DNA from: Escherichia phage UP19
Length of the DNA stretch: 64,000 nt
Sequence record: OX638288
Direction: 5' to 3' (one strand)
This document shows positions 969 through 30,760 of the stretch, one piece after another. The translations under genes were made by a program, and so were the position numbers. Numbering within the stretch: the stretch's first letter is position 1; each line of letters begins with the position of its first letter. Under the pieces are notes generated by a model. It worked only from the letters and a program-made list of their open reading frames with translations, searched no databases and was not told the origin of the DNA.

Positions 969-2113
969 TTGAATTATATGATAACTTAATGGGCCTGGTT
1001 AAAAACTCGACTAAATCTAAGTTCTTCTTTAAAGACTTTCAGAGTGCGCTAGGAGTCAACTATCGCATCTTTAGTTATAACTATGCATCGTACAGTGATT
1101 GGTTGGAAGACGGCGCACTAGAGTGCCGAGGCATTATGTTTGAAATGGACGAGAACGGTCCGGTACGTATTGCTGCTCGTCCTATGCAAAAGTTCTTTAA
1201 CCTCGACGAAAACCCGTTGACCATTGGTTTGGATTTATCACAAGGAAATATCGACCTCGTAATGGCTAAGGAAGATGGTTCCTTGATTTCTACCTTCATG
1301 GACCGACAATATCTTTCTGTTAAATCTAAAGGCTCTATCCATTCATCAATGGTGCATGATTCTTTACGTTTCCTTCGACTCCCTGAAAACGAGGCCTTCG
1401 CTGCTCGTTTAGAAGAAATTACTAAAGCAGGCTATACATGTAACCTCGAGTATGTTTCGCCTACTAACCGTATTGTGCTGGCTTACCAAGAAACAAACCT
1501 TATCTTACTTAACGTTCGTAATAACGAAACGGGTGAATATATCCCTTACGCTGAACTGTTTAAAGATGGCGCTCTGCGTAAGCATTTGGTTAAAAGCTAT
1601 GAACTCTCTGAAGGTGATTTTGTTGACAATATCCGTAAACAAGAGGGTATTGAAGGCTTTATCTTTGTACTTAAAGATGGCACGTTCTTTAAACTCAAAA
1701 CCGCTTGGTATAGCGCACTGCATCATACCAAAGATTCCATTAATAATAACGAACGTTTATTTGAAGTTGTAGTGGCTGGTGGAACTGATGACCTCCGAGG
1801 TTTGTTCAGTACGGATTCGTTTGCTATTGAGAAAATCAATACATTTGAACGTATCCATTTAGACTACTTAGAACAGTCCTTGGCTTTGTTAGAAGCAGCA
1901 TATTCTCAGCTCAAGGGCCGCGACCGTAAGGACTACGCTGTTACCGGTCAGTTAATCCTCAAAGACTTCCCAGGGCTGTTCTCTATTCTTATGCAGGCGT
2001 ACGTAGGCGGTATTAATTATGATACGGTCGTAGACCAGATTAACTCTGTGTTCTTGAAAAATCATAAGGCCCAAATCCCTGAAAAATATTTGAAAGAAAT
2101 TGTTATAGAGTAG
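965..2113 (+). CDS. rnlA: RNA ligase 1 (gene 63)
   Basis: 382 aa; N-terminal ..YRIFSYNYASYSDW..ALECRGIMFE.. and KEDGSL nucleotidyl-transferase motif; ATGA overlap with denA stop. Confidence 0.9.
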   Translation: MIELYDNLMGLVKNSTKSKFFFKDFQSALGVNYRIFSYNYASYSDWLEDGALECRGIMFEMDENGPVRIAARPMQKFFNLDENPLTIGLDLSQGNIDLVMAKEDGSLISTFMDRQYLSVKSKGSIHSSMVHDSLRFLRLPENEAFAARLEEITKAGYTCNLEYVSPTNRIVLAYQETNLILLNVRNNETGEYIPYAELFKDGALRKHLVKSYELSEGDFVDNIRKQEGIEGFIFVLKDGTFFKLKTAWYSALHHTKDSINNNERLFEVVVAGGTDDLRGLFSTDSFAIEKINTFERIHLDYLEQSLALLEAAYSQLKGRDRKDYAVTGQLILKDFPGLFSILMQAYVGGINYDTVVDQINSVFLKNHKAQIPEKYLKEIVIE

Positions 2114-2144
2114 TTTACATCTCCTCATGATGTGTTAGTATAGA
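2113..2144 (+). promoter_or_regulatory. T4-type early promoter (GTTTAC -35 at 2113-2118, TAGTAT/TATAGA -10 at 2136-2144) inside a 9-bp inverted repeat (2120-2128 / 2156-2164) that includes the SD
   Basis: GTTTACA ... 17 nt ... TAGTAT; TCTCCTCAT / ATGAGGAGA inverted repeat; ATG of alc at 2172. Confidence 0.55.
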
Positions 2145-2171
2145 CCTACCAACTAATGAGGAGAAAACAAA

Positions 2172-2672
2172 ATGAATATGCAAATGATTACTAACGAAAT
2201 GGTTGTTAAAGCTTTTGGTGATTCTACTGACGGTATCCAAGTTTTTAAAGGTTCTCGTGCGGTAGGTTACCTAACCGATCTTCGTGTTACTTTAGCCAAA
2301 AATGCTAAAAAGAAAATCAAGCAAAAAGAATATTCTACCCGTTATGCAGAAGAAAAGCGTGAAGCCATGCCTGAAGCTGTTAACTCTATGGTTGAGTTTC
2401 TCCAAAACAACCTTTCTAAGTATGATGCTGAGGTATTCATTAATATCAGTCAGCCTAATGTTAAAATCGCAGGAATCACATTCTATTTGATTTGCGACCC
2501 ATTAAGTGACAAGTTTAATCGCCTTGGCATTTCCAGCCCTTACCATACTGCTGAAGAATTGTGTGTGATGTTTGAAACATACAAAATTCAGTGTGAAAAT
2601 CCTAAAACGGTTCTTATCAACTCCCTGTCACGTGATGACATCATCGAGATTATTACCAAATGTCTAAATTAA
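2172..2672 (+). CDS. alc: Alc-like host transcription termination protein (by position and size)
   Basis: 166 aa (T4 Alc is 167 aa); lies between rnlA and pseT.3 as in T4; no motif verification possible. Confidence 0.55.
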   Translation: MNMQMITNEMVVKAFGDSTDGIQVFKGSRAVGYLTDLRVTLAKNAKKKIKQKEYSTRYAEEKREAMPEAVNSMVEFLQNNLSKYDAEVFINISQPNVKIAGITFYLICDPLSDKFNRLGISSPYHTAEELCVMFETYKIQCENPKTVLINSLSRDDIIEIITKCLN

Positions 2673-3013
2673 GTATTTACCTTTTAGCTGGAGCCATTGT
2701 AGTAGGTGCTTACAGTCTTATTTCGTATCAATCAAGCCGTATTGATACCCTTACTGAAGAACTGAAAACAACCCAGCAAACAGCTAAACAGAACGCTGAA
2801 GCTGTTGATGACCTTCGTGGTCAATACTCTGATATTGAATTCCGTACTACTGAAATGAATGCCCGAATGGATAAAATTAAGGCAGAAAATGAAAAGCTCC
2901 GTAAAGATTCGAAGAAGGCGCACGTGGTGGCAAGTAAGCCAGGATTGGTCGAAAAACAAATCAACAAGTCCTTCGATTCCTTTACAGAAGACTTCAGGAG
3001 CATCACAGAATGA
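2660..3013 (+). CDS. pseT.3: i-spanin (inner-membrane spanin subunit)
   Basis: 117 aa; N-terminal TM helix (LSIYLLAGAIVVGAYSLI) followed by charged coiled-coil periplasmic domain; followed by lipoprotein partner. Confidence 0.7.
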   Translation: MSKLSIYLLAGAIVVGAYSLISYQSSRIDTLTEELKTTQQTAKQNAEAVDDLRGQYSDIEFRTTEMNARMDKIKAENEKLRKDSKKAHVVASKPGLVEKQINKSFDSFTEDFRSITE

Positions 3014-3300
3014 TTAAATTGGCTGCTGTAATGTTATCTATTGGCTTGTTAGTTGGATGTGCCCAGGACATCCCTGTAGCGCCTAAGCAACAACTCCACC
3101 CTTCATGGCCACAACCTATTGCCGAACATAATGTTAAATGGCAGGTTAAGGTAATCGACGGTAAGGCTTGGGTTGGTATGCCATTTGAAGACTCGCAAGA
3201 ACACAGAATTTGGTTGAACGACGTAAAAAGATATGTACAAGACCAGAAATCTATGTTATGTTATTATCGTTCCGGACTAAAAGAGGAGAAGTGCAAATGA
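3010..3300 (+). CDS. pseT.2: o-spanin (outer-membrane lipoprotein spanin subunit)
   Basis: 96 aa; signal peptide with lipobox LLVGC; start overlaps i-spanin stop (ATGA). Confidence 0.7.
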   Translation: MIKLAAVMLSIGLLVGCAQDIPVAPKQQLHPSWPQPIAEHNVKWQVKVIDGKAWVGMPFEDSQEHRIWLNDVKRYVQDQKSMLCYYRSGLKEEKCK

Positions 3301-3404
3301 TTGAAGCCTGTATCGATGGGTGGGACGTTTTTAAATTCGGTGCTGCATGTTTTTGCTTTGGTATCGTGTTCAGCCTGTGTATGAATGGTATTTTTGGGAA
3401 GTAG
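3297..3404 (+). CDS. hypothetical 35-aa hydrophobic peptide (MIEACIDGWDVFKFGAACFCFGIVFSLCMNGIFGK)
   Basis: ATG overlaps pseT.2 stop (ATGA coupling); single predicted TM segment; below the 60-aa ORF-track cutoff. Confidence 0.3.
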   Translation: MIEACIDGWDVFKFGAACFCFGIVFSLCMNGIFGK

Positions 3405-3438
3405 TTTACAAACTCTTGGGAGCAGAGTATAATGCTCC
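3404..3438 (+). promoter_or_regulatory. T4-type early promoter (GTTTAC 3404-3409, TATAAT 3428-3433) with GGAGCA/TGCTCC inverted repeat bracketing the -10
   Basis: GTTTACA ... 18 nt ... TATAAT; inverted repeat 3419-3424 / 3433-3438. Confidence 0.55.
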
Positions 3439-3467
3439 TACGGATTATAAAAATTGAGGAAATTATT

Positions 3468-3946
3468 ATGACATTACGTGATAACAGTTTTGTGGCTAAG
3501 CCTGAATACATTTCAAGTATTAAATCTCCTGTATTACAAAAGCTCCTTAAACTAGGGTCCTGTGCAAGCACTCCTATTGAAAAGAAGGCAACTTTCGATT
3601 TTGCTTGGGCTATTGTGGACGGTATTGATGTAGTAAGACAGGTAACTTTTTATGCTCCAGGGTCTATTGAGCCTTCACAGATTATTAATTTGAACGGAAG
3701 TAATTATATTACCATCCAACAGTGGTATCGTATGATGCGACCTGTTTGGGAATACCCTGAATTCATTGAAGAGTACAATGAAAAAGAACGTATTCGTGAG
3801 CTAGTAAAAAGTTTTGAATACGCAGCTAAACGCCACGGCCAGATGCAGCAAGCTGTGGCTTTAGGTGATGTTGATGAAAAATCAGCATATGAAAGTGGTA
3901 AACTTCTGAAAACCTGTCGCGAAGAACTTTATAAGGAGCTTGGTGT

Positions 3947-3950
<4 letters not shown>
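3468..3950 (+). CDS. hypothetical protein (pseT-region accessory ORF)
   Basis: 160-aa ORF with SD GAGG 8 nt upstream of ATG 3468; follows the early promoter cassette. Confidence 0.55.
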
Positions 3951-5168
<1,218 letters not shown>

Positions 5169-5169
<1 letters not shown>

Positions 5170-5366
5170 TGAATAATATCGAAAAGATTTTTCGTACAAT
5201 CGAAGAAATTGAAAAACGTAAATGCTTTTTCTTCGGCGTATGGCCTTTAACTGATGGACGTATTGGCCTGGATGTTATGGACTATAAAGATGAGGACAAG
5301 GTCGATGGTGGTATTTTTAAATCCGCTCCTGAACTCCTTGCCTTCTTGGAAGAACATTATGTATAA
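5169..5366 (+). CDS. hypothetical protein
   Basis: 65-aa ORF, start overlaps pseT stop. Confidence 0.45.
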
Positions 5367-5574
5367 CAAACACCATGAAGTTGAAGAAGAAGCTTATAAA
5401 GAGCTTCAGAAACTGGTAGGTCAGAATATGTCTCCTACCCTCATTAACTCACTAGCGGCTCTCCGTAACGATTTGAATGAACGTTATAAAGGCGAGTACT
5501 ATGTTGAGTTCGTTCCTCTGACTGAAGTCGTTGACCGGTTTATTGTTAACGTGAAGGTCCATACAGTACACTGA
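5359..5574 (+). CDS. hypothetical protein
   Basis: 71-aa ORF starting at internal ATG 5359 of track ORF 5254..5574. Confidence 0.4.
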   Translation: MYNKHHEVEEEAYKELQKLVGQNMSPTLINSLAALRNDLNERYKGEYYVEFVPLTEVVDRFIVNVKVHTVH

Positions 5575-5581
5575 GGTAATT

Positions 5582-5860
5582 ATGTTCCCTACTTATTCCG
5601 AAATTGTTAAAGTAGTTTTTAGTCAGATTGTATCTGATTACCTATACGAACCCGTCGACACCTCGATTGAACTAAAAGTTCACGGACGTTTGTCTGCTAT
5701 TCTGGAAATCATGTTCCCGGATGCAGTTGATGCGATCACTGTCCAACTCACGTCTGGCGCAGCATTTGCAATTGTTCCATTTAAAATTGATAACCACATT
5801 TTGGCTATTTCATGCAAAATGGACTTCCAGAAACAAACGGTAGTTGTCGAAGCAATTTAA
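5582..5860 (+). CDS. hypothetical protein
   Basis: 92-aa ORF. Confidence 0.45.
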   Translation: MFPTYSEIVKVVFSQIVSDYLYEPVDTSIELKVHGRLSAILEIMFPDAVDAITVQLTSGAAFAIVPFKIDNHILAISCKMDFQKQTVVVEAI

Positions 5861-5862
5861 GT

Positions 5863-5901
5863 GTTTACATCATGGTAGGACTGTGGTATAGTAGTCCTAC
5901 C
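5863..5901 (+). promoter_or_regulatory. T4-type early promoter (GTTTAC 5863-5868, TATAGT 5887-5892) with its -10 in the loop of a perfect 9-bp inverted repeat (GGTAGGACT 5874-5882 / AGTCCTACC 5893-5901)
   Basis: Seen directly; followed by leader ..AAACAAATGAGGAA..ATG (5923). Confidence 0.55.
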
Positions 5902-5922
5902 GAAACAAATGAGGAAATCGAA

Positions 5923-6474
5923 ATGGGTAAGTTCTTTGAAGAGCGTAAGTTTTATAAGTTCATTAGCGAATACACTAAAAACAAATTCACTAATAACGGT
6001 GCTTATGCCCTCAATACAGCTTTTGCCAAGTATGTAGGTATGAATCCGTTTGAAGTTGAAATTGATTACCATAATGGGTGTGAACGTGTAAGCCGAATTC
6101 GTGTATATGACGAGATGATGTTTGTCGACCCTAGCAAAATCACCGGTAATCCTGATGATGCAAATACTGTTCTTTTTAATTCAACAGGCCTTTTTGGCCA
6201 TGAATTCGAATACTTCATTGAAGTAGTACGTCCACTGGCCTCGGTGAGTATTCCTGAAAATGGACCTAAACCAGTAAAAGCCACTGCTGATTGGAAAGTG
6301 CTTATTGTTAAAAATGGTAAGATTGAAGTCCATTCTCGCCATAACACAAAGGAACAAGCCGACCGTCAAGCCGAAGAGCTTTTGACCAGTTCGTTCCAAC
6401 AAGTGTGTTATATTGTTAAGGGCGACGTTACCCAAGCTACCACTACCAAACAACTTAAGTTGGAGACCATCTAA
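5923..6474 (+). CDS. hypothetical protein
   Basis: 183-aa ORF from ATG 5923 with SD GAGGAA; follows early promoter cassette. Confidence 0.55.
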   Translation: MGKFFEERKFYKFISEYTKNKFTNNGAYALNTAFAKYVGMNPFEVEIDYHNGCERVSRIRVYDEMMFVDPSKITGNPDDANTVLFNSTGLFGHEFEYFIEVVRPLASVSIPENGPKPVKATADWKVLIVKNGKIEVHSRHNTKEQADRQAEELLTSSFQQVCYIVKGDVTQATTTKQLKLETI

Positions 6475-6707
6475 TGCTGAGCGAACAACCTATTACTGTA
6501 GAGCAGTTCCAAGTTAAAGTTAAAGAATTTGCTCAGGCTCTGATTAATAAGGTTTCTGTACGTTTTCCTGATGCAACTCTGCGAGTAATTCAGGAATCAC
6601 CGCGTGCAGTATTGGTTATCGTTAATCCTAAAGATGGCGACCAGATTACCCAGTTGAAACTCGGTTCTGATGGTCTGGTCGAAGCACAGCGAGTGTATGT
6701 AGAATGA
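6474..6707 (+). CDS. hypothetical protein
   Basis: 77-aa ORF, coupled to flanking genes. Confidence 0.45.
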   Translation: MLSEQPITVEQFQVKVKEFAQALINKVSVRFPDATLRVIQESPRAVLVIVNPKDGDQITQLKLGSDGLVEAQRVYVE

Positions 6708-7249
6708 AAGCAAGCACATATCTTCAGATTGCATATCTTATTTCTCAGGAATCAAAATGTTGTTCATGGAAAGTGGGCGCGGTTATTGAAAAGAATGGCC
6801 GCATTATTTCTACAGGGTATAATGGTTCGCCGTCTGGTGGTGTTAACTGTTGTGACCATGCAGTGGAACAGGACTGGACTCGTGTTGTGTATGACACGGC
6901 CCGAATGTCCCATAAATCGATTCTTCTTAAAGAACATCGTATGGCTCATGCTGCATGGTCATCCAAAAATGAAATCCATGCTGAACTGAATGCTATCCTG
7001 TTTGCAGCTCGTACAGGAAGTTCTATTGACGGTGCTACGATGTATGTGACACTGTCCCCATGTGCAGATTGTGCTAAGTCTATTGCGCAGTCCGGAATTA
7101 AAACGCTGGTTTATGCTGAACTCTATGACCGAAATCCTGAAGGATGGGATGATATCCTCCGTGAATCGGGCATCGAAGTTATCCAGTATAACCGTACCGG
7201 TCTCCGTTCTCTGAACTGGGAATCAATTCAAAACTATTGTGGTGAATAA
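6704..7249 (+). CDS. cd: dCMP deaminase
   Basis: 181 aa; zinc-binding cytidine/deoxycytidylate deaminase motifs HAELNAI and PCADC. Confidence 0.9.
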   Translation: MKASTYLQIAYLISQESKCCSWKVGAVIEKNGRIISTGYNGSPSGGVNCCDHAVEQDWTRVVYDTARMSHKSILLKEHRMAHAAWSSKNEIHAELNAILFAARTGSSIDGATMYVTLSPCADCAKSIAQSGIKTLVYAELYDRNPEGWDDILRESGIEVIQYNRTGLRSLNWESIQNYCGE

Positions 7250-25693: not shown

Positions 25694-26131
25694 ATGAGTA
25701 AAGAGATTGAATATAAATTGGAATCATTCCAAGATGCATTGGATGAAGATTTAAAGATTGATGGGACTCGTTTACAGTATGAAGTACAGAACAACGTTTT
25801 GCTGCACAGCAAATGGCTAAGGCTGTATACGAATTGTAAGAAAGAGATAATGCGATTAGAAATCCAGAAAAAGACCTCTCTTAAGAAGCGTTTAGATTTC
25901 TACACGGGACGTGGAGAGCCTGGTGATGAGGTTTGTATGGACCAATACGAGAAGTCAGAATTAAAGACCGTAATGGCCGCAGATTCTAGCGTGATTAAAA
26001 TAGATACATCAATCCAGTATTGGGCTTTATTACAGGACTTTTGTAGTTCAGCACTGGATGCAGTCAAAGCTAGAGGGTTCTCGTTAAAGAATATGTTGGA
26101 GCTCAGGAAATTTGAAGCAGGTGAAAAATGA
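25694..26131 (+). CDS. uvsY: recombination mediator protein UvsY
   Basis: 145 aa from ATG 25694; ..TRLQYEVQNNVLLHSKWLRLY.. and ..YEKSELKTVMAADSSVIKIDTSIQYW.. matching T4 UvsY. Confidence 0.85.
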   Translation: MSKEIEYKLESFQDALDEDLKIDGTRLQYEVQNNVLLHSKWLRLYTNCKKEIMRLEIQKKTSLKKRLDFYTGRGEPGDEVCMDQYEKSELKTVMAADSSVIKIDTSIQYWALLQDFCSSALDAVKARGFSLKNMLELRKFEAGEK

Positions 26132-26226
26132 GACGTACTAAAAATACCAAACCCATTAAAGTAGATGCCGATAAGATGAAACTTCTCCAAGAATTCATTA
26201 ATGCCGCTTTAGCAAGTAATAAATAG
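26128..26226 (+). CDS. hypothetical 32-aa ORF (uvsY.-1-like position)
   Basis: ATG overlaps uvsY stop (ATGA); below track cutoff. Confidence 0.3.
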   Translation: MRRTKNTKPIKVDADKMKLLQEFINAALASNK

Positions 26227-26254: not shown

Positions 26255-26422
26255 ATGTCAGATAAGATTTGCGTTGTCTGTAAAACTCCAATCGATGCTG
26301 CATTGGTTGTTGAAACAGAAAAAGGTCCGGTTCATCCGGGTTCATGTTATAATTACGTTCAAAGCCTGCCTGTTACGGAAAACACTGAAGAACAGCTGAA
26401 CGAAACCCAATTACTACTTTAG
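26255..26422 (+). CDS. hypothetical 55-aa Cys-containing protein (uvsY.-2-like position)
   Basis: SD AGGAG 7 nt upstream of ATG 26255; CVVC...C motif suggests a zinc ribbon; ends at terminator. Confidence 0.45.
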   Translation: MSDKICVVCKTPIDAALVVETEKGPVHPGSCYNYVQSLPVTENTEEQLNETQLLL

Positions 26423-26452
26423 TCTAGTGTGTATAGCCATTTTATGGTTATT

Positions 26453-26480
26453 GGCCCTTCCGAAAGGTTGGGCCTTTTTT
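26453..26480. terminator. bidirectional terminator hairpin (GGCCC..GGGCC) + T6 between converging uvsY-side and uvsW-side transcripts
   Basis: GC stem-loop followed by TTTTTT on the plus strand and A/T-rich on the minus strand. Confidence 0.65.
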
Positions 26481-26483
26481 GTT

Positions 26484-26711
26484 TTAGAACTCTTCTTGCT
26501 CTTCGTCATCCATAGATTCCAATTCAGCTCGTTTACCTGCTAAGGCATCACGAACACTGATATCGTCCGAATCTCGAAGTTCAGCTTCTTTACTACGAGT
26601 TTTGTAATACTTTTCCAATTCCTTCAAACCGTCCATGGTTTGACAAGAACTAATTTTAGACATGAAGCTCTCGATAGAGGCTTCATAGATAACTTCTTTA
26701 AAGGACTTCAT
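26484..26711 (-). CDS. small helical protein, UvsW.1-like by position
   Basis: 75 aa, acidic C-terminus; sits where UvsW.1 follows uvsW in T4 but separated from uvsW by the HNH gene. Confidence 0.45.
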   Translation of the reverse strand: MKSFKEVIYEASIESFMSKISSCQTMDGLKELEKYYKTRSKEAELRDSDDISVRDALAGKRAELESMDDEEQEEF

Positions 26712-27403
26712 AAATCCACCTGTTTCATTAAATTTCTGATTTTGTGACGAGAAAGACCCGTGGCTTCGGAAGCTTGTTTCATCGAGCCATATTCAACACC
26801 ATTTATAGTAACCTTTTTAGCTGCTGGGTTTTTAGATGGGTCTTTATATCTTTCTTTAGCTTTATCTGAAATTTTCTTAGAAGCTTCTGGCGTATGATTT
26901 TTACCATACATGCCGTTGCCAGCACCGGAATTTCTTTCAGATATAGCTTGACATTGTTCTTGCATGTATTTATAAGGATTCGCTTTTTTAGTTGCGGATA
27001 TTTTATCGCCCCATAAAATAGGCCTACCTTTAAATAAATTGCTCATGTATTCTTTATGGGCTTCAGTGTGGTGCTTACCATAAAATGGATTTCCTTCGCC
27101 AGTCTGAAGAATTGCCAATTGTCTACGTTCCCACCCGTATGATTTACTAAATTGTCTTTTATGGGTCCTGGAACTCATACCCATAGAAATAACAGCTTTT
27201 ATGAGACCGTAGTTATTTGGATAAATTTTAGCCAGTAATTTATGAGCTATAAAATGTTCTTCTGGGGTAAGGCGTACTCTATTTTCCCGAGTATCGGGCC
27301 CGCCCATACAAGTCGGGATTATATGATGGGACTCGGTGTACCCGAGAGGTTTAGAAGCCTTTCGGCTTCTAATTAAATTGTCATAAATCTTTTGATAATT
27401 CAA
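26708..27403 (-). CDS. HNH homing endonuclease with NUMOD3-like DNA-binding repeats
   Basis: 231 aa; HNH core ..ESHHIIPTCMGGPDTRENRVRLTPEEHFIAHKL..; repeated GxxxYGKxHTxEx(K)KIS motifs; ATGA-coupled on both sides. Confidence 0.85.
   Translation of the reverse strand: MNYQKIYDNLIRSRKASKPLGYTESHHIIPTCMGGPDTRENRVRLTPEEHFIAHKLLAKIYPNNYGLIKAVISMGMSSRTHKRQFSKSYGWERRQLAILQTGEGNPFYGKHHTEAHKEYMSNLFKGRPILWGDKISATKKANPYKYMQEQCQAISERNSGAGNGMYGKNHTPEASKKISDKAKERYKDPSKNPAAKKVTINGVEYGSMKQASEATGLSRHKIRNLMKQVDL
26708..27403 (-). mobile_element. free-standing HNH homing endonuclease gene inserted between uvsW and uvsW.1-like ORF
   Basis: Same ORF as above; intergenic insertion typical of T4-type homing endonuclease genes. 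Confidence 0.7.
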
Positions 27404-28896
27404 ATTTGGACCTCTTTCATTACGTAATTAAAACGTTCATCTGCGTAACGTTGAATACGTTCAAGACCATGTTTAAGAGCGTAGTTTAAATGAACATATT
27501 TCTTTTTAGCCATAGATGATTTAGGTTTCACACCCATATCATCAATAATATCAAATACCTGGGCTGTTGATTTGGAAGCATGCTTACGTAGTACACGACC
27601 TATGGTCTGAAGTACAATAATTTTTGATTTTACCGGATGAGCAAATACAACATGGTGAAGGTTCTTAACGGAAATACCAGTAGAGAACACACCGTAACTT
27701 GCCACAACAATAATACCCTTACCATTTTCCGCCATTACTTTCAGAGCATTACGCGTTTCGGTATTAACTTCACCTGATACGTAATAAACTTCTTTATGTT
27801 GCTCTTTAACCATTTCAAAAAGAGTTTTACCGTGTTCGATGTTTTTAAACATCAGGAATACATTCTCTTCTTTCTTAGCGAGTTTAACAGCTAAATTAGC
27901 AACCCATTTATTACGACGAGTAGCCTTAGTAATGACCTTTATTTCTGATTGATAATCTTTACCTTTCATCTTAACAGTGAATTCATCCGGATAACGAAGG
28001 AAAATACTGTTGATTTTAAGGTCTGTAACCTGTCCTTCTTCCATTAACTGCGAAGTGGATACCGGCTTAAACACATCACCAAACAAACCCATATATTGCA
28101 TTAAATTAGCTTTACCGTCTTTTAAAGAACCGGACAAACCGAATTTAAACATACAGTTGGTTAGGCCTTCGATGATGGTAGAAATTGATTTACCTGTCGC
28201 CAAATGGCATTCGTCATTCATAAACATACCAAACTGAGCAAACCATTCTTTAGGTTGTTTAATAGCCGTTTGATAAGTTGAAACATAAATCATTGCATCG
28301 GAATCACGTGCAGTACCTGAACGAATACCAAGCATAGCAGCTTTAGGGAACAAACGATAATCGATGAAGTCATTAATCATCTGGTCAACAAGGGCAGTAG
28401 TAGGAACTAAAATAAGGATTTTACCTTCATAGTTCTCAACATAATATCGACTCAGGAGCGCCTGAATCAATGATTTACCTGCGGATGTAGGTAAATTCAG
28501 AATTGCGCGACGTTTTGTCAGACCGTTGTATACGGCTTCATTCTGATACCAATGTGGCTCAATCTTGGTAGAACCCGAATAAATCTCTTGTGAGGCTACC
28601 CATGAGTCAAAATCTTCGCGAGAAATATCTTCCTGTTCAAGAATACGTGGGTCAATCCACAGAGAGTATTCAAACTGGTCAGCGAATTTTTTAATTTGTG
28701 GGACTAGACCATACGGAAGTTTACGGTTATAATCTAGAAGACGAATTCTCCCGTCCCATTGCCCGTACCGGTATTTAGGGTTAAATTTATATCCATCAGC
28801 TTCAAAGCTGAAATAGTCTCTGAGTTCGTAGAAGGTGGATTCATCACACTCAATACGAACATGACTAAAATTATCAAAATGTACTTGAATTTGCAT
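27400..28896 (-). CDS. uvsW: UvsW ATP-dependent DNA/RNA helicase
   Basis: 498 aa; N-terminus ..VHFDNFSHVRIECDESTFYELRDYFSFEADGYKFNP..; Walker A LPTSAGKS; DECH box. Confidence 0.95.
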   Translation of the reverse strand: MQIQVHFDNFSHVRIECDESTFYELRDYFSFEADGYKFNPKYRYGQWDGRIRLLDYNRKLPYGLVPQIKKFADQFEYSLWIDPRILEQEDISREDFDSWVASQEIYSGSTKIEPHWYQNEAVYNGLTKRRAILNLPTSAGKSLIQALLSRYYVENYEGKILILVPTTALVDQMINDFIDYRLFPKAAMLGIRSGTARDSDAMIYVSTYQTAIKQPKEWFAQFGMFMNDECHLATGKSISTIIEGLTNCMFKFGLSGSLKDGKANLMQYMGLFGDVFKPVSTSQLMEEGQVTDLKINSIFLRYPDEFTVKMKGKDYQSEIKVITKATRRNKWVANLAVKLAKKEENVFLMFKNIEHGKTLFEMVKEQHKEVYYVSGEVNTETRNALKVMAENGKGIIVVASYGVFSTGISVKNLHHVVFAHPVKSKIIVLQTIGRVLRKHASKSTAQVFDIIDDMGVKPKSSMAKKKYVHLNYALKHGLERIQRYADERFNYVMKEVQI

Positions 28897-28910: not shown

Positions 28911-28932
28911 TATAAATATAACTATATTTATA
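28911..28932. promoter_or_regulatory. pair of face-to-face divergent late promoters: TATAAATA (plus, 28911-28918, for inh/hoc) and TATTTATA (minus-strand TATAAATA, 28925-28932, for uvsW)
   Basis: Both octamers exact; arranged so that the two 5' leaders would overlap. Confidence 0.6.
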
Positions 28933-28951: not shown

Positions 28952-29623
28952 ATGGATACTCAATATATTGAAGAGCTTCGTGCACTCGAAGATAAAAAAG
29001 AAGCTAAAGCTAAGTTAATCGAATACGGCGAACAGTTCGGTTTAAAACTTAAGAAAACCCGTTCGTTTGATAATTTGGTTATCGATATCTCTGAAGGCCT
29101 TAAAGCCTTGGCTGATGAACCACATCCAGAAACCGAAGGTTTGTCTATTTCTGATTTGATTGATGCTGCCGACGAACTAACAGGCGCTAAAGAATTTGTT
29201 GATGGTGCTGAACCTGCCAAAGAAGAGGCTACCCTATTATTTGATGCCCCTGAAGCGGTAGTTGAAGTTATTGAGGTAGCCGAACTCCCTAAGGTAGAGA
29301 TTATTGAAGAAGATGTTCCTTTTGTCGAAGAGAAATTCAAAGAGGCTGTAGCCGAGGTTATTGAATCTGAAAAACCTGTATTCTCTTTGCCTGAAAACTT
29401 TAGTCCTAATCTTTTGCTTATTGGTAAAAACCCTGGTTACTGTACTGTTCCTTGGTGGATTTATCAATGGATTTCTGAAACCCCTGATTGGAAAGAACGT
29501 CCTAAAGATTTCCAACACCCTTCTGCCCACCAAACATTATTCAGTCTGATTTATTACATCAATCGTAATGGCTCAGTATTAGTACGTGAAACACGTAATT
29601 CATCTTTTGTAACTTTAAAATAA
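28952..29623 (+). CDS. inh: Inh-like protein (inhibitor of prohead protease) by position
   Basis: 223 aa; located immediately upstream of hoc as in T4; acidic Glu/Ala-rich middle. Confidence 0.5.
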   Translation: MDTQYIEELRALEDKKEAKAKLIEYGEQFGLKLKKTRSFDNLVIDISEGLKALADEPHPETEGLSISDLIDAADELTGAKEFVDGAEPAKEEATLLFDAPEAVVEVIEVAELPKVEIIEEDVPFVEEKFKEAVAEVIESEKPVFSLPENFSPNLLLIGKNPGYCTVPWWIYQWISETPDWKERPKDFQHPSAHQTLFSLIYYINRNGSVLVRETRNSSFVTLK

Positions 29624-29632
29624 GGGTAAACT

Positions 29633-30760
29633 ATGGCTTTTACTGTAAGTATAGCCGGCACAGCGTCTATTAAAATAGGCGAAAGTGCTAACTACACTGC
29701 TACCGCAACAGGTGCAGCTGTAGAAGGAACCATTACATATGTATGGTCTATTGATGGTGCTTCTAATCCAGAAGCAACCAATGTTTTGAAATATACAGGT
29801 GCTTCACCTGCAGGTAAGAAAGTTTTAAAAGTAGTAGCAACTTCTACTCCAGCTGAAGGCGAACCTGAGGTAGCTGAAGATACTTTTGAAGTTACCGTAG
29901 CTAATAAGACCATGTCTATTTCTTTGGCTTTGGACCCTATTTCTGTTTCTAAAGAAGTTGGCCAATCTCAAGTTGTTACTGCTAACGTGACGGGTGCACC
30001 TGCAGGTGCAACAATCGCTTATGTTTGGAAACGTAACACTAGCGTAATATCAGGTCAAACCGGTAAAACTATTACCATAACCGAAGCGGCGGAAGCAAAT
30101 TACACTTTGAACTGTGAAGTTACTGTTACCGCCCCTGAATATGACCCGGCTACCGCTACCAAAGGTGTTGCGGTAACTTTTGTTAAGAAAACTATGTCAG
30201 GTGTTTCTGTTACTTTAACGCCAACCTCTATTAATGTTCCTGAAGGAACTCCGGCTTCTTTTAAAGCTACCGTAGTCGGCGCACCTGCTGGTGCTACTTT
30301 TGCTTATTCTTGGAAGAAAGACGGTTCATCAGTCGCAGGTGCCACAGATACTTTAGTGGTTGATACTAGTGCTGAAGGTTCGCAGGTTATTGAAGTTTCT
30401 GTTGTTGTTTCGGCTACCAACTATAATCCTGTGACCGTCACAAAATCCGGTAATGTAACAATTACGGCTAAAGTCGCTCCTGAACCGGAAGGTGAACTAC
30501 CTTATGTACACCCACTTCCTGTTCGTAATTCAGCGTATATTTGGGCCGGCTGGTGGGTTATGGATGAAATCCAGAAAATGACCCTTGAAGGTAAAGACTG
30601 GAAAACTGATGACCCTGATAGCGATTATTATCTCCATCGCTATACTCTTCAAAAAATGGTTGCCGATTATCCAGAGGTTGATGTACAAGAATCACGTAAT
30701 GGAAGAATTATCCATCGCACCGCTTTAGAAGCTGGTATTATATACGATTACGTTTATTAA
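29633..30760 (+). CDS. hoc: Hoc outer capsid decoration protein (Ig-like domains)
   Basis: 375 aa (T4 Hoc is 376 aa); three repeated Ig-like modules (..YVWSIDG.. / ..YVWKRNT.. / ..YSWKKDG..); C-terminal ..ELPYVHPLP..WWVMDEIQKMT.. Confidence 0.9.
   Translation: MAFTVSIAGTASIKIGESANYTATATGAAVEGTITYVWSIDGASNPEATNVLKYTGASPAGKKVLKVVATSTPAEGEPEVAEDTFEVTVANKTMSISLALDPISVSKEVGQSQVVTANVTGAPAGATIAYVWKRNTSVISGQTGKTITITEAAEANYTLNCEVTVTAPEYDPATATKGVAVTFVKKTMSGVSVTLTPTSINVPEGTPASFKATVVGAPAGATFAYSWKKDGSSVAGATDTLVVDTSAEGSQVIEVSVVVSATNYNPVTVTKSGNVTITAKVAPEPEGELPYVHPLPVRNSAYIWAGWWVMDEIQKMTLEGKDWKTDDPDSDYYLHRYTLQKMVADYPEVDVQESRNGRIIHRTALEAGIIYDYVY

Follow-up and report, generated by a model that had tools for sequence, protein, structure and literature searches.

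A probable MobE-like HNH homing endonuclease gene at the uvsW/uvsW.1 junction of Escherichia phage UP19

What kind of gene lies between the helicase gene uvsW and its small downstream neighbour uvsW.1 in Escherichia phage UP19, how is it built into a junction at which the two genes overlap directly in most of its nearest relatives, and what does it leave behind in the adjacent sequence? We address these questions in a stretch of 64,000 nucleotides (nt) of this phage (sequence record OX638288), hereafter referred to as the window. An initial annotation, made from the letters alone, had described three open reading frames (ORFs) at this locus, in the order uvsW, a 231-amino-acid (aa) ORF and a UvsW.1-like ORF, connected by overlapping start and stop codons, and this arrangement, which lies on the minus strand, is borne out by the ORF list, the sequence and Pfam. 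The endonuclease that it placed at the junction is likewise found there, with the correction that the interval assigned to it, 26484-27403, also takes in uvsW.1, the gene alone occupying 26708-27403. On the evidence set out below, it is highly probable that this ORF encodes a free-standing homing endonuclease of the T4 Mob type, MobE-like and of the HNH class, and sits in a 692-base-pair (bp) cassette at the uvsW/uvsW.1 overlap.

The family assignment starts from the protein, whose sequence is identical to the UP19 entry CAI9865852.1, named "homing endonuclease" (NCBI), and which matches PHROG 655, "homing endonuclease", with an E-value (E) of 8.4e-54. MobE of phage T6 shares 36% identity with it (BLASTP E 4e-27) and aligns with a nine-sequence profile at an hhalign probability of 99.9% (E 6e-33). 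Residues 22-54 align with the HNH motif of McrA (6ghc), with E 0.038 (single sequence) and 4.4e-4 (profile), and also with other HNH nucleases of solved structure, and the residues H25, H26, N40, H49 and H53 are invariant in the alignment of nine sequences. Downstream of this motif, NUMOD3 (PF07460) is matched over two stretches, its 44.3 bits exceeding the cut-off of 20.4 (E 1.6e-11). The C-terminus resembles the DNA-binding domain of I-TevI: the Pfam model I-TevI_DNA-bd (PF20987) reaches 13.5 bits in the window protein, under its cut-off of 27, and the orthologue profile aligns with PDB 1i3j, the I-TevI DNA-binding domain itself, at E 8.9e-4. This C-terminal helix-turn-helix is also the only confidently folded part of a single-sequence AlphaFold2 model, which has a mean predicted local distance difference test (pLDDT) score of 44 and, at values below 50, is too poor to use over residues 1-179. 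The description of the protein as an HNH endonuclease with NUMOD3 repeats is thus upheld by the homology to MobE, the intact HH/N/H/H motif and the two NUMOD3 stretches.

Is the gene still functional? The ratio of nonsynonymous to synonymous divergence (dN/dS) lies at 0.05-0.10, comparisons at a synonymous divergence (dS) of about 1.4 included, and an intact ORF of 231 codons is found in all five close copies; the gene is under purifying selection. A decaying, inactive remnant might be suspected from the non-ATG start, from the lack of a Pfam HNH match and from the presence in T4 of defunct endonucleases such as I-TevIII (PMC2790892), but it is very improbable in view of the intact reading frame of the close copies, the low dN/dS, the invariant catalytic residues and a start position that is kept, as TTG, GTG or ATG, across the compared phage groups. 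The loss of HNH catalytic residues, which the initial annotation had named as the mark of a degenerate gene, is not seen at any of the five invariant positions.

The boundaries of the gene are defined by its neighbours. The upstream ORF carries the domains UvsW_N (E 1.1e-43), ResIII and Helicase_C (Pfam), and its product is identical to CAI9865853.1, the "DNA helicase" of Escherichia phage UP19 (NCBI); the product of the downstream ORF matches PF11637 (UvsW-1) with 86 bits against a cut-off of 25 (E 1.9e-24), and the position of this gene downstream of uvsW is syntenic with T4-like phages. The stop codon TGA of uvsW and the TTG start of the endonuclease gene form the overlap TTGA, and the endonuclease stop and the uvsW.1 start form the overlap ATGA, so that the endonuclease ORF, which is out of frame with uvsW, shares 4 nt with a complete ORF on either side. 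TTG is the sole start-like codon between the upstream in-frame TAA and the HH motif. In orthologues of other phage groups the homologous start codon is TTG, GTG or ATG, and since its position is kept in this way, the 231-aa reading is the right one. The records of SP18 (locus positions 1989-2684) and UPEC01 (1988-2683) annotate the coding sequence (CDS) from an internal ATG, at 199 aa and with the HH of the HNH motif lost; a conserved TTG 96 nt upstream of the annotated ATG restores the full 231 aa.

The UPEC01 record names the endonuclease "group I intron endonuclease", a name which suggests that the gene could be encoded by an intron, or be part of a group I intron or an intein. The family TIGR01453 (group I intron endonuclease) indeed matches the C-terminal half of the protein, at 32 bits, and this half has the similarity to the I-TevI DNA-binding domain. 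The match, however, stays under the cut-off of 56 bits and covers the DNA-binding half only, an Rfam scan of positions 26300-27800 returned no intron or other RNA family at E <= 1, the frame of the ORF differs from that of uvsW, and UvsW has its full length of 498 aa, as in insert-free phages. Such an origin is therefore extremely improbable. With 4-nt overlaps to complete ORFs on both sides, no Rfam match and a UvsW of unchanged length, the endonuclease gene is free-standing.

How is the gene inserted? The insert measures 692 bp, sits exactly at the overlap of the uvsW stop and the uvsW.1 start, and is flanked by a 24-nt imperfect direct repeat, the two copies being identical at 18 of 24 positions (75%) with a spacing of 692 (family D1 of the repeat search). 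The 5' copy reads …ATGAAAGAGGTCCAAATTTGA and lets UvsW end in …VMKEVQI (protein tails are given here up to the stop codon). It thereby provides, at the 5' end of the cassette, a replacement tail made of the last seven or so uvsW codons, and ends UvsW at its usual 498 aa, the same length as in insert-free phages. The 3' copy (…ATGAAACAGGTGGATTTATGA, …MKQVDL) is identical to the uvsW end of the insert-free phages NC-G, JS10 and WG01; translated in an unchanged frame, this native uvsW tail now forms the end of the endonuclease, …RNLMKQVDL. This copy also retains the Shine-Dalgarno (SD) sequence and the ATGA overlap of uvsW.1, the partner stop codon now being that of the endonuclease and formerly that of uvsW. 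Corresponding junctions are found in other carriers. In T6, KTVNL, the native UvsW tail of insert-free Tequatrovirus phages, forms the end of the endonuclease, and UvsW itself ends in KEVKL; in SP18, a perfect 19-bp repeat occurs 692 bp apart, and removal of one copy together with the insert gives the insert-free junction of VR7; and the 5' junction of UGJNEcP3/4 is built alike (…MKEVQL, TTGA).

The distribution of the gene was assessed over 687 phage records matching the region, eight of which contain it. These carriers comprise PSD2002 and ESCO10 in Dhakavirus and, in an SP18-like group, TH40, pEC-M719-6WT.2, SP18 (two records), UPEC01 and DK-13, with SP18 and UPEC01 confirmed as Gaprivervirus. 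With Dhakavirus phages, NC-G, dhaeg and JS10 among them, the sequence flanking the UP19 gene shares 95-96% identity. Insert-free alleles, which were to be sought at the junctions of relatives, do exist: in NC-G, JS10, JS98, WG01, AnYang and most other Dhakaviruses uvsW is joined straight to uvsW.1 by ATGA, and VR7 and T4 are also insert-free at the junction. For T4, which the initial annotation gave as having no gene there, inspection of the record confirmed this. The T4 reference NC_000866 (locus positions 1178-2941) still presents uvsW and uvsW.1 as one fused CDS of 1764 nt, which is a known sequencing error (PMC1524935, PMC6486255).

Full-length orthologues occupy the same junction in Gaprivervirus (84% aa identity), Klebsiella phage Roth16 (62%; the record gives no genus), Proteus phage PM2 of the genus Bragavirus (60%) and Tequatrovirus phages (58%; T6, ACG-C40, PST and others), and an orthologue seems to be present in T6 and some 49 further Tequatrovirus records. 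Close copies are rare: of about 15 billion proteins, five (UP19, PSD2002, ESCO10 and two fragments) fall into the 90%-identity cluster of the endonuclease. Scans of IMG/VR and of JGI metagenomes with the protein returned distant relatives only, with a best full-length match of 58% (T6-type) and the rest matching in the N-terminal domain only, and brought up neither additional carriers nor donors for the uvsW tract discussed below. A different endonuclease, of 260 aa, occupies the same junction in the Dhakavirus phages UGJNEcP3/4; its HNH domain is related (53% over 64 aa) and its remainder unrelated. In the literature searches, no paper describing an endonuclease at the uvsW/uvsW.1 junction was found, and the junction endonuclease is known from genome annotation alone.

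How might the inserted gene be expressed? In T4, uvsW is a late gene. A T4-type late-promoter motif, TATAAATA, precedes uvsW in the window and is presumed to be the source of a transcript that covers uvsW, the endonuclease gene and uvsW.1; a motif scan found no further copy between it and the endonuclease start. The earlier suggestion that the endonuclease rides the uvsW late transcript is consistent with this motif and with the TTGA overlap, while transcription itself is something that we infer. The second copy of TATAAATA lies within the endonuclease ORF, where only the Dhakavirus and Gaprivervirus copies of the gene conserve it; very tentatively, it might be a late promoter for uvsW.1.

Folding furthermore predicts a GC-rich hairpin in the 5' end of the endonuclease gene. 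All six junction lineages have a hairpin at this place, each with its own sequence (z-scores of -1.9 to -4.3), in the most variable stretch of the protein, and T6 mobE has one at the same position (TTCCCGAGC-TCAG-GCTCGGGAA). In T4, the mobE hairpin acts as an intrinsic terminator of low strength, for which the downstream gene is compensated by a promoter that lies within mobE (PMC2790892, PMC2988022). The hairpin was rejected as a family-wide trait, most of 61 wider family members being without it. A minority of other MobE-family genes, at six IMG/VR loci taken regardless of insertion site, have a strong hairpin of -16 to -18 kcal/mol at about nt +25 to +75, shortly after the conserved codons for NYQKIYD. 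Sequestration of the ribosome-binding site was also considered and rejected: pairing of the SD sequence with an upstream CUCUU is confined to a structure with an ensemble frequency of just 0.015, and a downstream anti-SD sequence, CCUCU, is not conserved in PSD2002 or ESCO10.

Where would the target of the endonuclease lie? Along uvsW, the window is 97-100% identical to NC-G and JS10 until about 240 nt before the stop codon, and then only 78-84%; between the window and NC-G, dS is 1.43 in this tract versus 0.11 in the body of the gene, with the protein staying conserved. PSD2002 and WG01, which belong to the same species, are 98-100% identical and then 70-83%, with a saturated dS in the tract versus 0.06 in the body, and UGJNEcP3 shows the same drop in the uvsW 3' end against WG01. 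In T6 and ACG-C40 the drop relative to T4 extends over the last 150 nt or so of uvsW (T6/T4 dS of 0.66 versus 0.07). No such drop was seen in the compared pairs of two non-carriers. The uvsW.1 side has no divergent tract; across the 3' junction, the window shows 100% identity with JS10, JS98 and ESCO10. In addition, 49 records share the T6-type tract at 95% identity or more, while the sampled non-carriers do not exceed about 80%, a linkage to carriers which is expected if tract and endonuclease move together. The one-sided position of the divergent tract points to a candidate target on the uvsW side; of the two locations proposed earlier for the cleavage site, the uvsW 3' end or uvsW.1, the former is thereby favoured, at a level that falls short of proof.

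Several observations weigh against the reading of the locus as a mobile MobE-like cassette. At the level of the protein, the Pfam HNH model PF01844 has no match in the window protein at E <= 0.1, and in the orthologues it scores 17-19 bits, under the cut-off of 21.4, which both MobE, at 24.4 bits, and the endonuclease of UGJNEcP3, at 26.8 bits, exceed; as this model is not reached, the family assignment rests on the homology to MobE together with the motif. At the level of expression, the TTG start implies a low output of endonuclease, and a poly(U) tract follows the 5' hairpin in none of the six lineages, so that termination is not implied. At the level of the footprint, the four Dhakavirus carriers have mutually different tracts (73-86% identity) although three of them share an endonuclease gene that is 95-97% identical, which co-conversion from one donor does not predict. 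Furthermore, the carrier SP18 and the non-carrier VR7 have the same tract, so that part of the pattern of presence and absence may reflect loss and not gain. When the window and PSD2002 tracts were compared by blastn with 50,697 phage records, no match other than the query's own record exceeded 85-86%. A simple mosaic of donor and recipient sequence was also tried and is not clean, since of the 48 differences between the window and JS10 in the tract at most 23 are common to any one compared phage, and 4 are unique.

One possibility, which we regard as doubtful, is that the mobile unit is a composite cassette, consisting of a recoded uvsW tract of about 240 nt that would confer immunity, the replacement tail and the endonuclease. 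In that case at least two endonuclease lineages with unrelated DNA-binding parts would contest the uvsW 3' end, and this contest would drive a synonymously saturated recoding of the conserved C-terminus of the helicase, with its own haplotype in each Dhakavirus carrier. An improbable alternative to a mobile cassette is that the gene is an old resident which is no longer mobile, is kept for the uvsW.1 signals or another function, and owes its patchy occurrence to repeated precise loss via the flanking direct repeats. Deletion between the perfect SP18 repeats gives exactly the VR7 junction, these two phages share their tract, the divergence of the orthologues (58-84% identity) roughly follows that of the phages, and the late-promoter motif inside the ORF would also suit a resident gene. 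Yet in Dhakavirus and Tequatrovirus what separates the carriers from the closest non-carriers is a tract at the insert with sharp bounds and synonymous saturation, which marks gene conversion and not deletion; in 49 records the T6-type tract goes together with the insert; and strong purifying selection acts on the whole protein, catalytic residues included.

The homing endonuclease reading can be measured against systems that have been studied before. MobE is a free-standing HNH homing endonuclease encoded between nrdA and nrdB in T4/T6 (Wilson and Edgell, 2009; PMC2790892). Homology between MobE and the UP19 protein extends over about 86% of the length, and the two genes are alike in an N-terminal HNH domain followed by NUMOD3, in a start that overlaps the stop of the upstream gene and a stop that overlaps the start of the downstream gene, in a hairpin with a 9-bp stem and a 4-nt loop about 30 nt into the ORF, and in a promoter motif, putative in UP19, for the downstream gene inside the ORF. 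They differ in their site (nrdA/nrdB versus uvsW/uvsW.1), in their C-terminus (a Cys/His-rich tail in MobE versus the putative I-TevI-like helix-turn-helix in UP19), in the hairpin, which lacks poly(U) in UP19, and in the start codon (ATG in mobE versus TTG). Moreover, MobE nicks the downstream gene nrdB, whereas the footprint at UP19 points to the upstream gene as the probable target, and MobE activity has been shown in vivo, whereas that of the UP19 protein is predicted.

The orthologues at the junction itself (T6 KMB99_gp215, ACG-C40 "MobE", PST "mobD", SP18_gp197, PM2 gp183 and that of Roth16) are annotated and uncharacterised. They agree with the UP19 gene in junction, orientation, NTGA overlap with uvsW, domain order and position of the 5' hairpin, and differ from it in sequence, at 58-84% identity to the UP19 protein, and, in the T6-type orthologues, by a short spacer with a hairpin before uvsW.1. 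The modular, "beads on a string" endonucleases I-TevI and I-HmuI offer a further likeness, through NUMOD3 repeats and a putative C-terminal I-TevI-like helix-turn-helix. From modularity of this type one would expect a monomeric enzyme with a long asymmetric binding site and a cleavage position some distance away, and I-HmuI, like MobE, nicks one strand. In contrast to the UP19 gene, both are intron-encoded, and I-TevI is a GIY-YIG nuclease; a sequence-level match of the window protein to I-HmuI was not obtained. Bonocora and colleagues reportedly described, in 2011, an endonuclease insertion which reshapes its host gene yet keeps its function. In the T4 cassette of mobA and gene 60, and for the Aeh1 mobE in nrdA, the endonuclease travels with host-gene sequence that keeps the interrupted gene working (PMC2988022). 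At UP19, the corresponding adjoining sequence is the replacement uvsW tail and possibly the recoded 3' tract; unlike in those two cases, the host gene is unsplit, no translational bypass is needed, and about seven codons are duplicated.

As a mobile MobE-like gene, the element would act as follows. Presumably without a promoter of its own, the endonuclease gene would be transcribed late, from the uvsW promoter, and its translation, by coupling from the weak TTG codon, would stay at a low level. The conserved hairpin, 31 nt into the ORF, may damp expression in the manner of the internal terminator of T4 mobE, and the embedded TATAAATA may restore transcription of uvsW.1. During mixed infection, the protein would bind a long site through its NUMOD3 and helix-turn-helix modules, the insert-free allele would then be nicked or cut within the last 150-250 nt or so of uvsW, and recombination-dependent repair from the carrier genome would copy the cassette together with the adjacent uvsW 3' tract, a co-conversion. 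Late, low-level expression and the steps of binding, nick or break, and repair we infer by analogy with MobE. The features on which this account draws are collected in Table 1.

Table 1. Features of the uvsW/uvsW.1 junction and its surroundings, in window coordinates.
Feature	Position	Strand	Basis
uvsW helicase gene, 498 aa	27400..28896	-	ORF list, Pfam
Endonuclease gene, 231 aa, TTG start	26708..27403	-	ORF list, homology searches
uvsW.1, 75 aa	26484..26711	-	Pfam UvsW-1
Putative T4-type late-promoter motif TATAAATA, 29 nt upstream of uvsW ATG	28925..28932	-	Motif match only
Hyperdivergent uvsW 3' tract, candidate co-conversion/immunity tract with presumed target region	27403..27640	-	Identity, dS
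5' repeat copy: variant uvsW tail, SD AAGAGG and endonuclease TTG	27399..27422	-	Repeat search, junction alignments
GC-rich hairpin in endonuclease 5' end, nt +32 to +53, 9-bp stem, GAAA loop	27351..27372	-	Folding, z -4.3
HNH catalytic motif, residues 22-54 (YTESHHIIPTCMGGPDTRENRVRLTPEEHFIAH)	27242..27340	-	Aligned to McrA HNH motif (6ghc)
First NUMOD3 repeat, around residues 100-125		-	Pfam PF07460
Second TATAAATA motif, inside endonuclease ORF, 256 nt upstream of uvsW.1 ATG	26967..26974	-	Motif match
Second NUMOD3 repeat, residues 152-179	26867..26950	-	Pfam PF07460
C-terminal I-TevI-DNA-binding-domain-like region (helix-turn-helix), residues 188-221	26741..26842	-	Pfam, profile
3' repeat copy: native uvsW tail	26707..26730	-	Repeat search, junction alignments
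GC hairpin between convergent uvsW.1 and uvsY.-2	26453..26474	.	Read from sequence

In the surroundings of the junction, the GC hairpin that separates uvsW.1 from uvsY.-2 was not called by the terminator scan; its position is that of the conserved bidirectional terminator of T4-like phages (PMC1524935). Two stretches of the window depart from its general closeness to Dhakavirus phages. Positions 25998-26200, comprising the uvsY 3' end and the spacer, are 92-93% identical to UGJNEcP3 and only 60-82% to the other compared Dhakaviruses, forming a small mosaic patch, and positions 29600-30400, at the start of the hoc-like gene region, are near JS10 only (83-95%), the other compared Dhakaviruses lying at about 50-80%. 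The public annotation of the region is uneven in places: in ESCO10 (locus positions 1781-4193) product names are displaced, uvsW being called "tail completion protein" and uvsY.-2 "major capsid protein", and in AnYang (locus positions 2228-2518) no uvsW.1 CDS is annotated and an ORF on the opposite strand is given instead.

Other selfish elements are also found in and around uvsW. In Proteus phage PM2 (locus positions 4183-6915), uvsW is annotated as three CDS, with Hint/Intein_splicing domains (Pfam) closing the N-terminal piece and opening the C-terminal one and a weak TnsA-like endonuclease match in the middle ORF of 291 aa; this uvsW looks like one interrupted by an intein, in a phage that also carries the junction HNH endonuclease. 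On the other side of the helicase gene, a GIY-YIG gene of the SegE type lies between inh and uvsW in T6 and ACG-C40 (locus positions 5415-6032 in both) and in T4 (558-1175). T6-type phages have both this gene and the junction endonuclease, and in them uvsW is therefore bracketed by two different homing endonuclease genes. In the window, inh and uvsW are separated by 55 nt, and no SegE-type gene is present.

The UP19 gene is one more of the many free-standing HNH homing endonucleases of T4-like phages, and is already so named in public records. Worth keeping from this locus are the duplication of the uvsW tail, the occurrence of two endonucleases with different DNA-binding parts at one junction, the mobE-like hairpin and the unexplained diversity of the Dhakavirus tracts. 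For the biology of these phages, the locus marks uvsW as a gene affected by three classes of selfish element (seg, mob and intein), and it illustrates how an endonuclease gene can enter a translationally coupled gene pair, with neither gene damaged, by duplicating the last few codons of the upstream gene. Near-identical pairs of carrier and non-carrier exist (UP19 versus JS10/NC-G, PSD2002 versus WG01, SP18 versus VR7), the boundaries of the insert are exact and the candidate target falls within some 240 nt of uvsW; the junction could therefore serve as a clean natural system for the poorly understood Mob endonucleases, which are nicking HNH enzymes.

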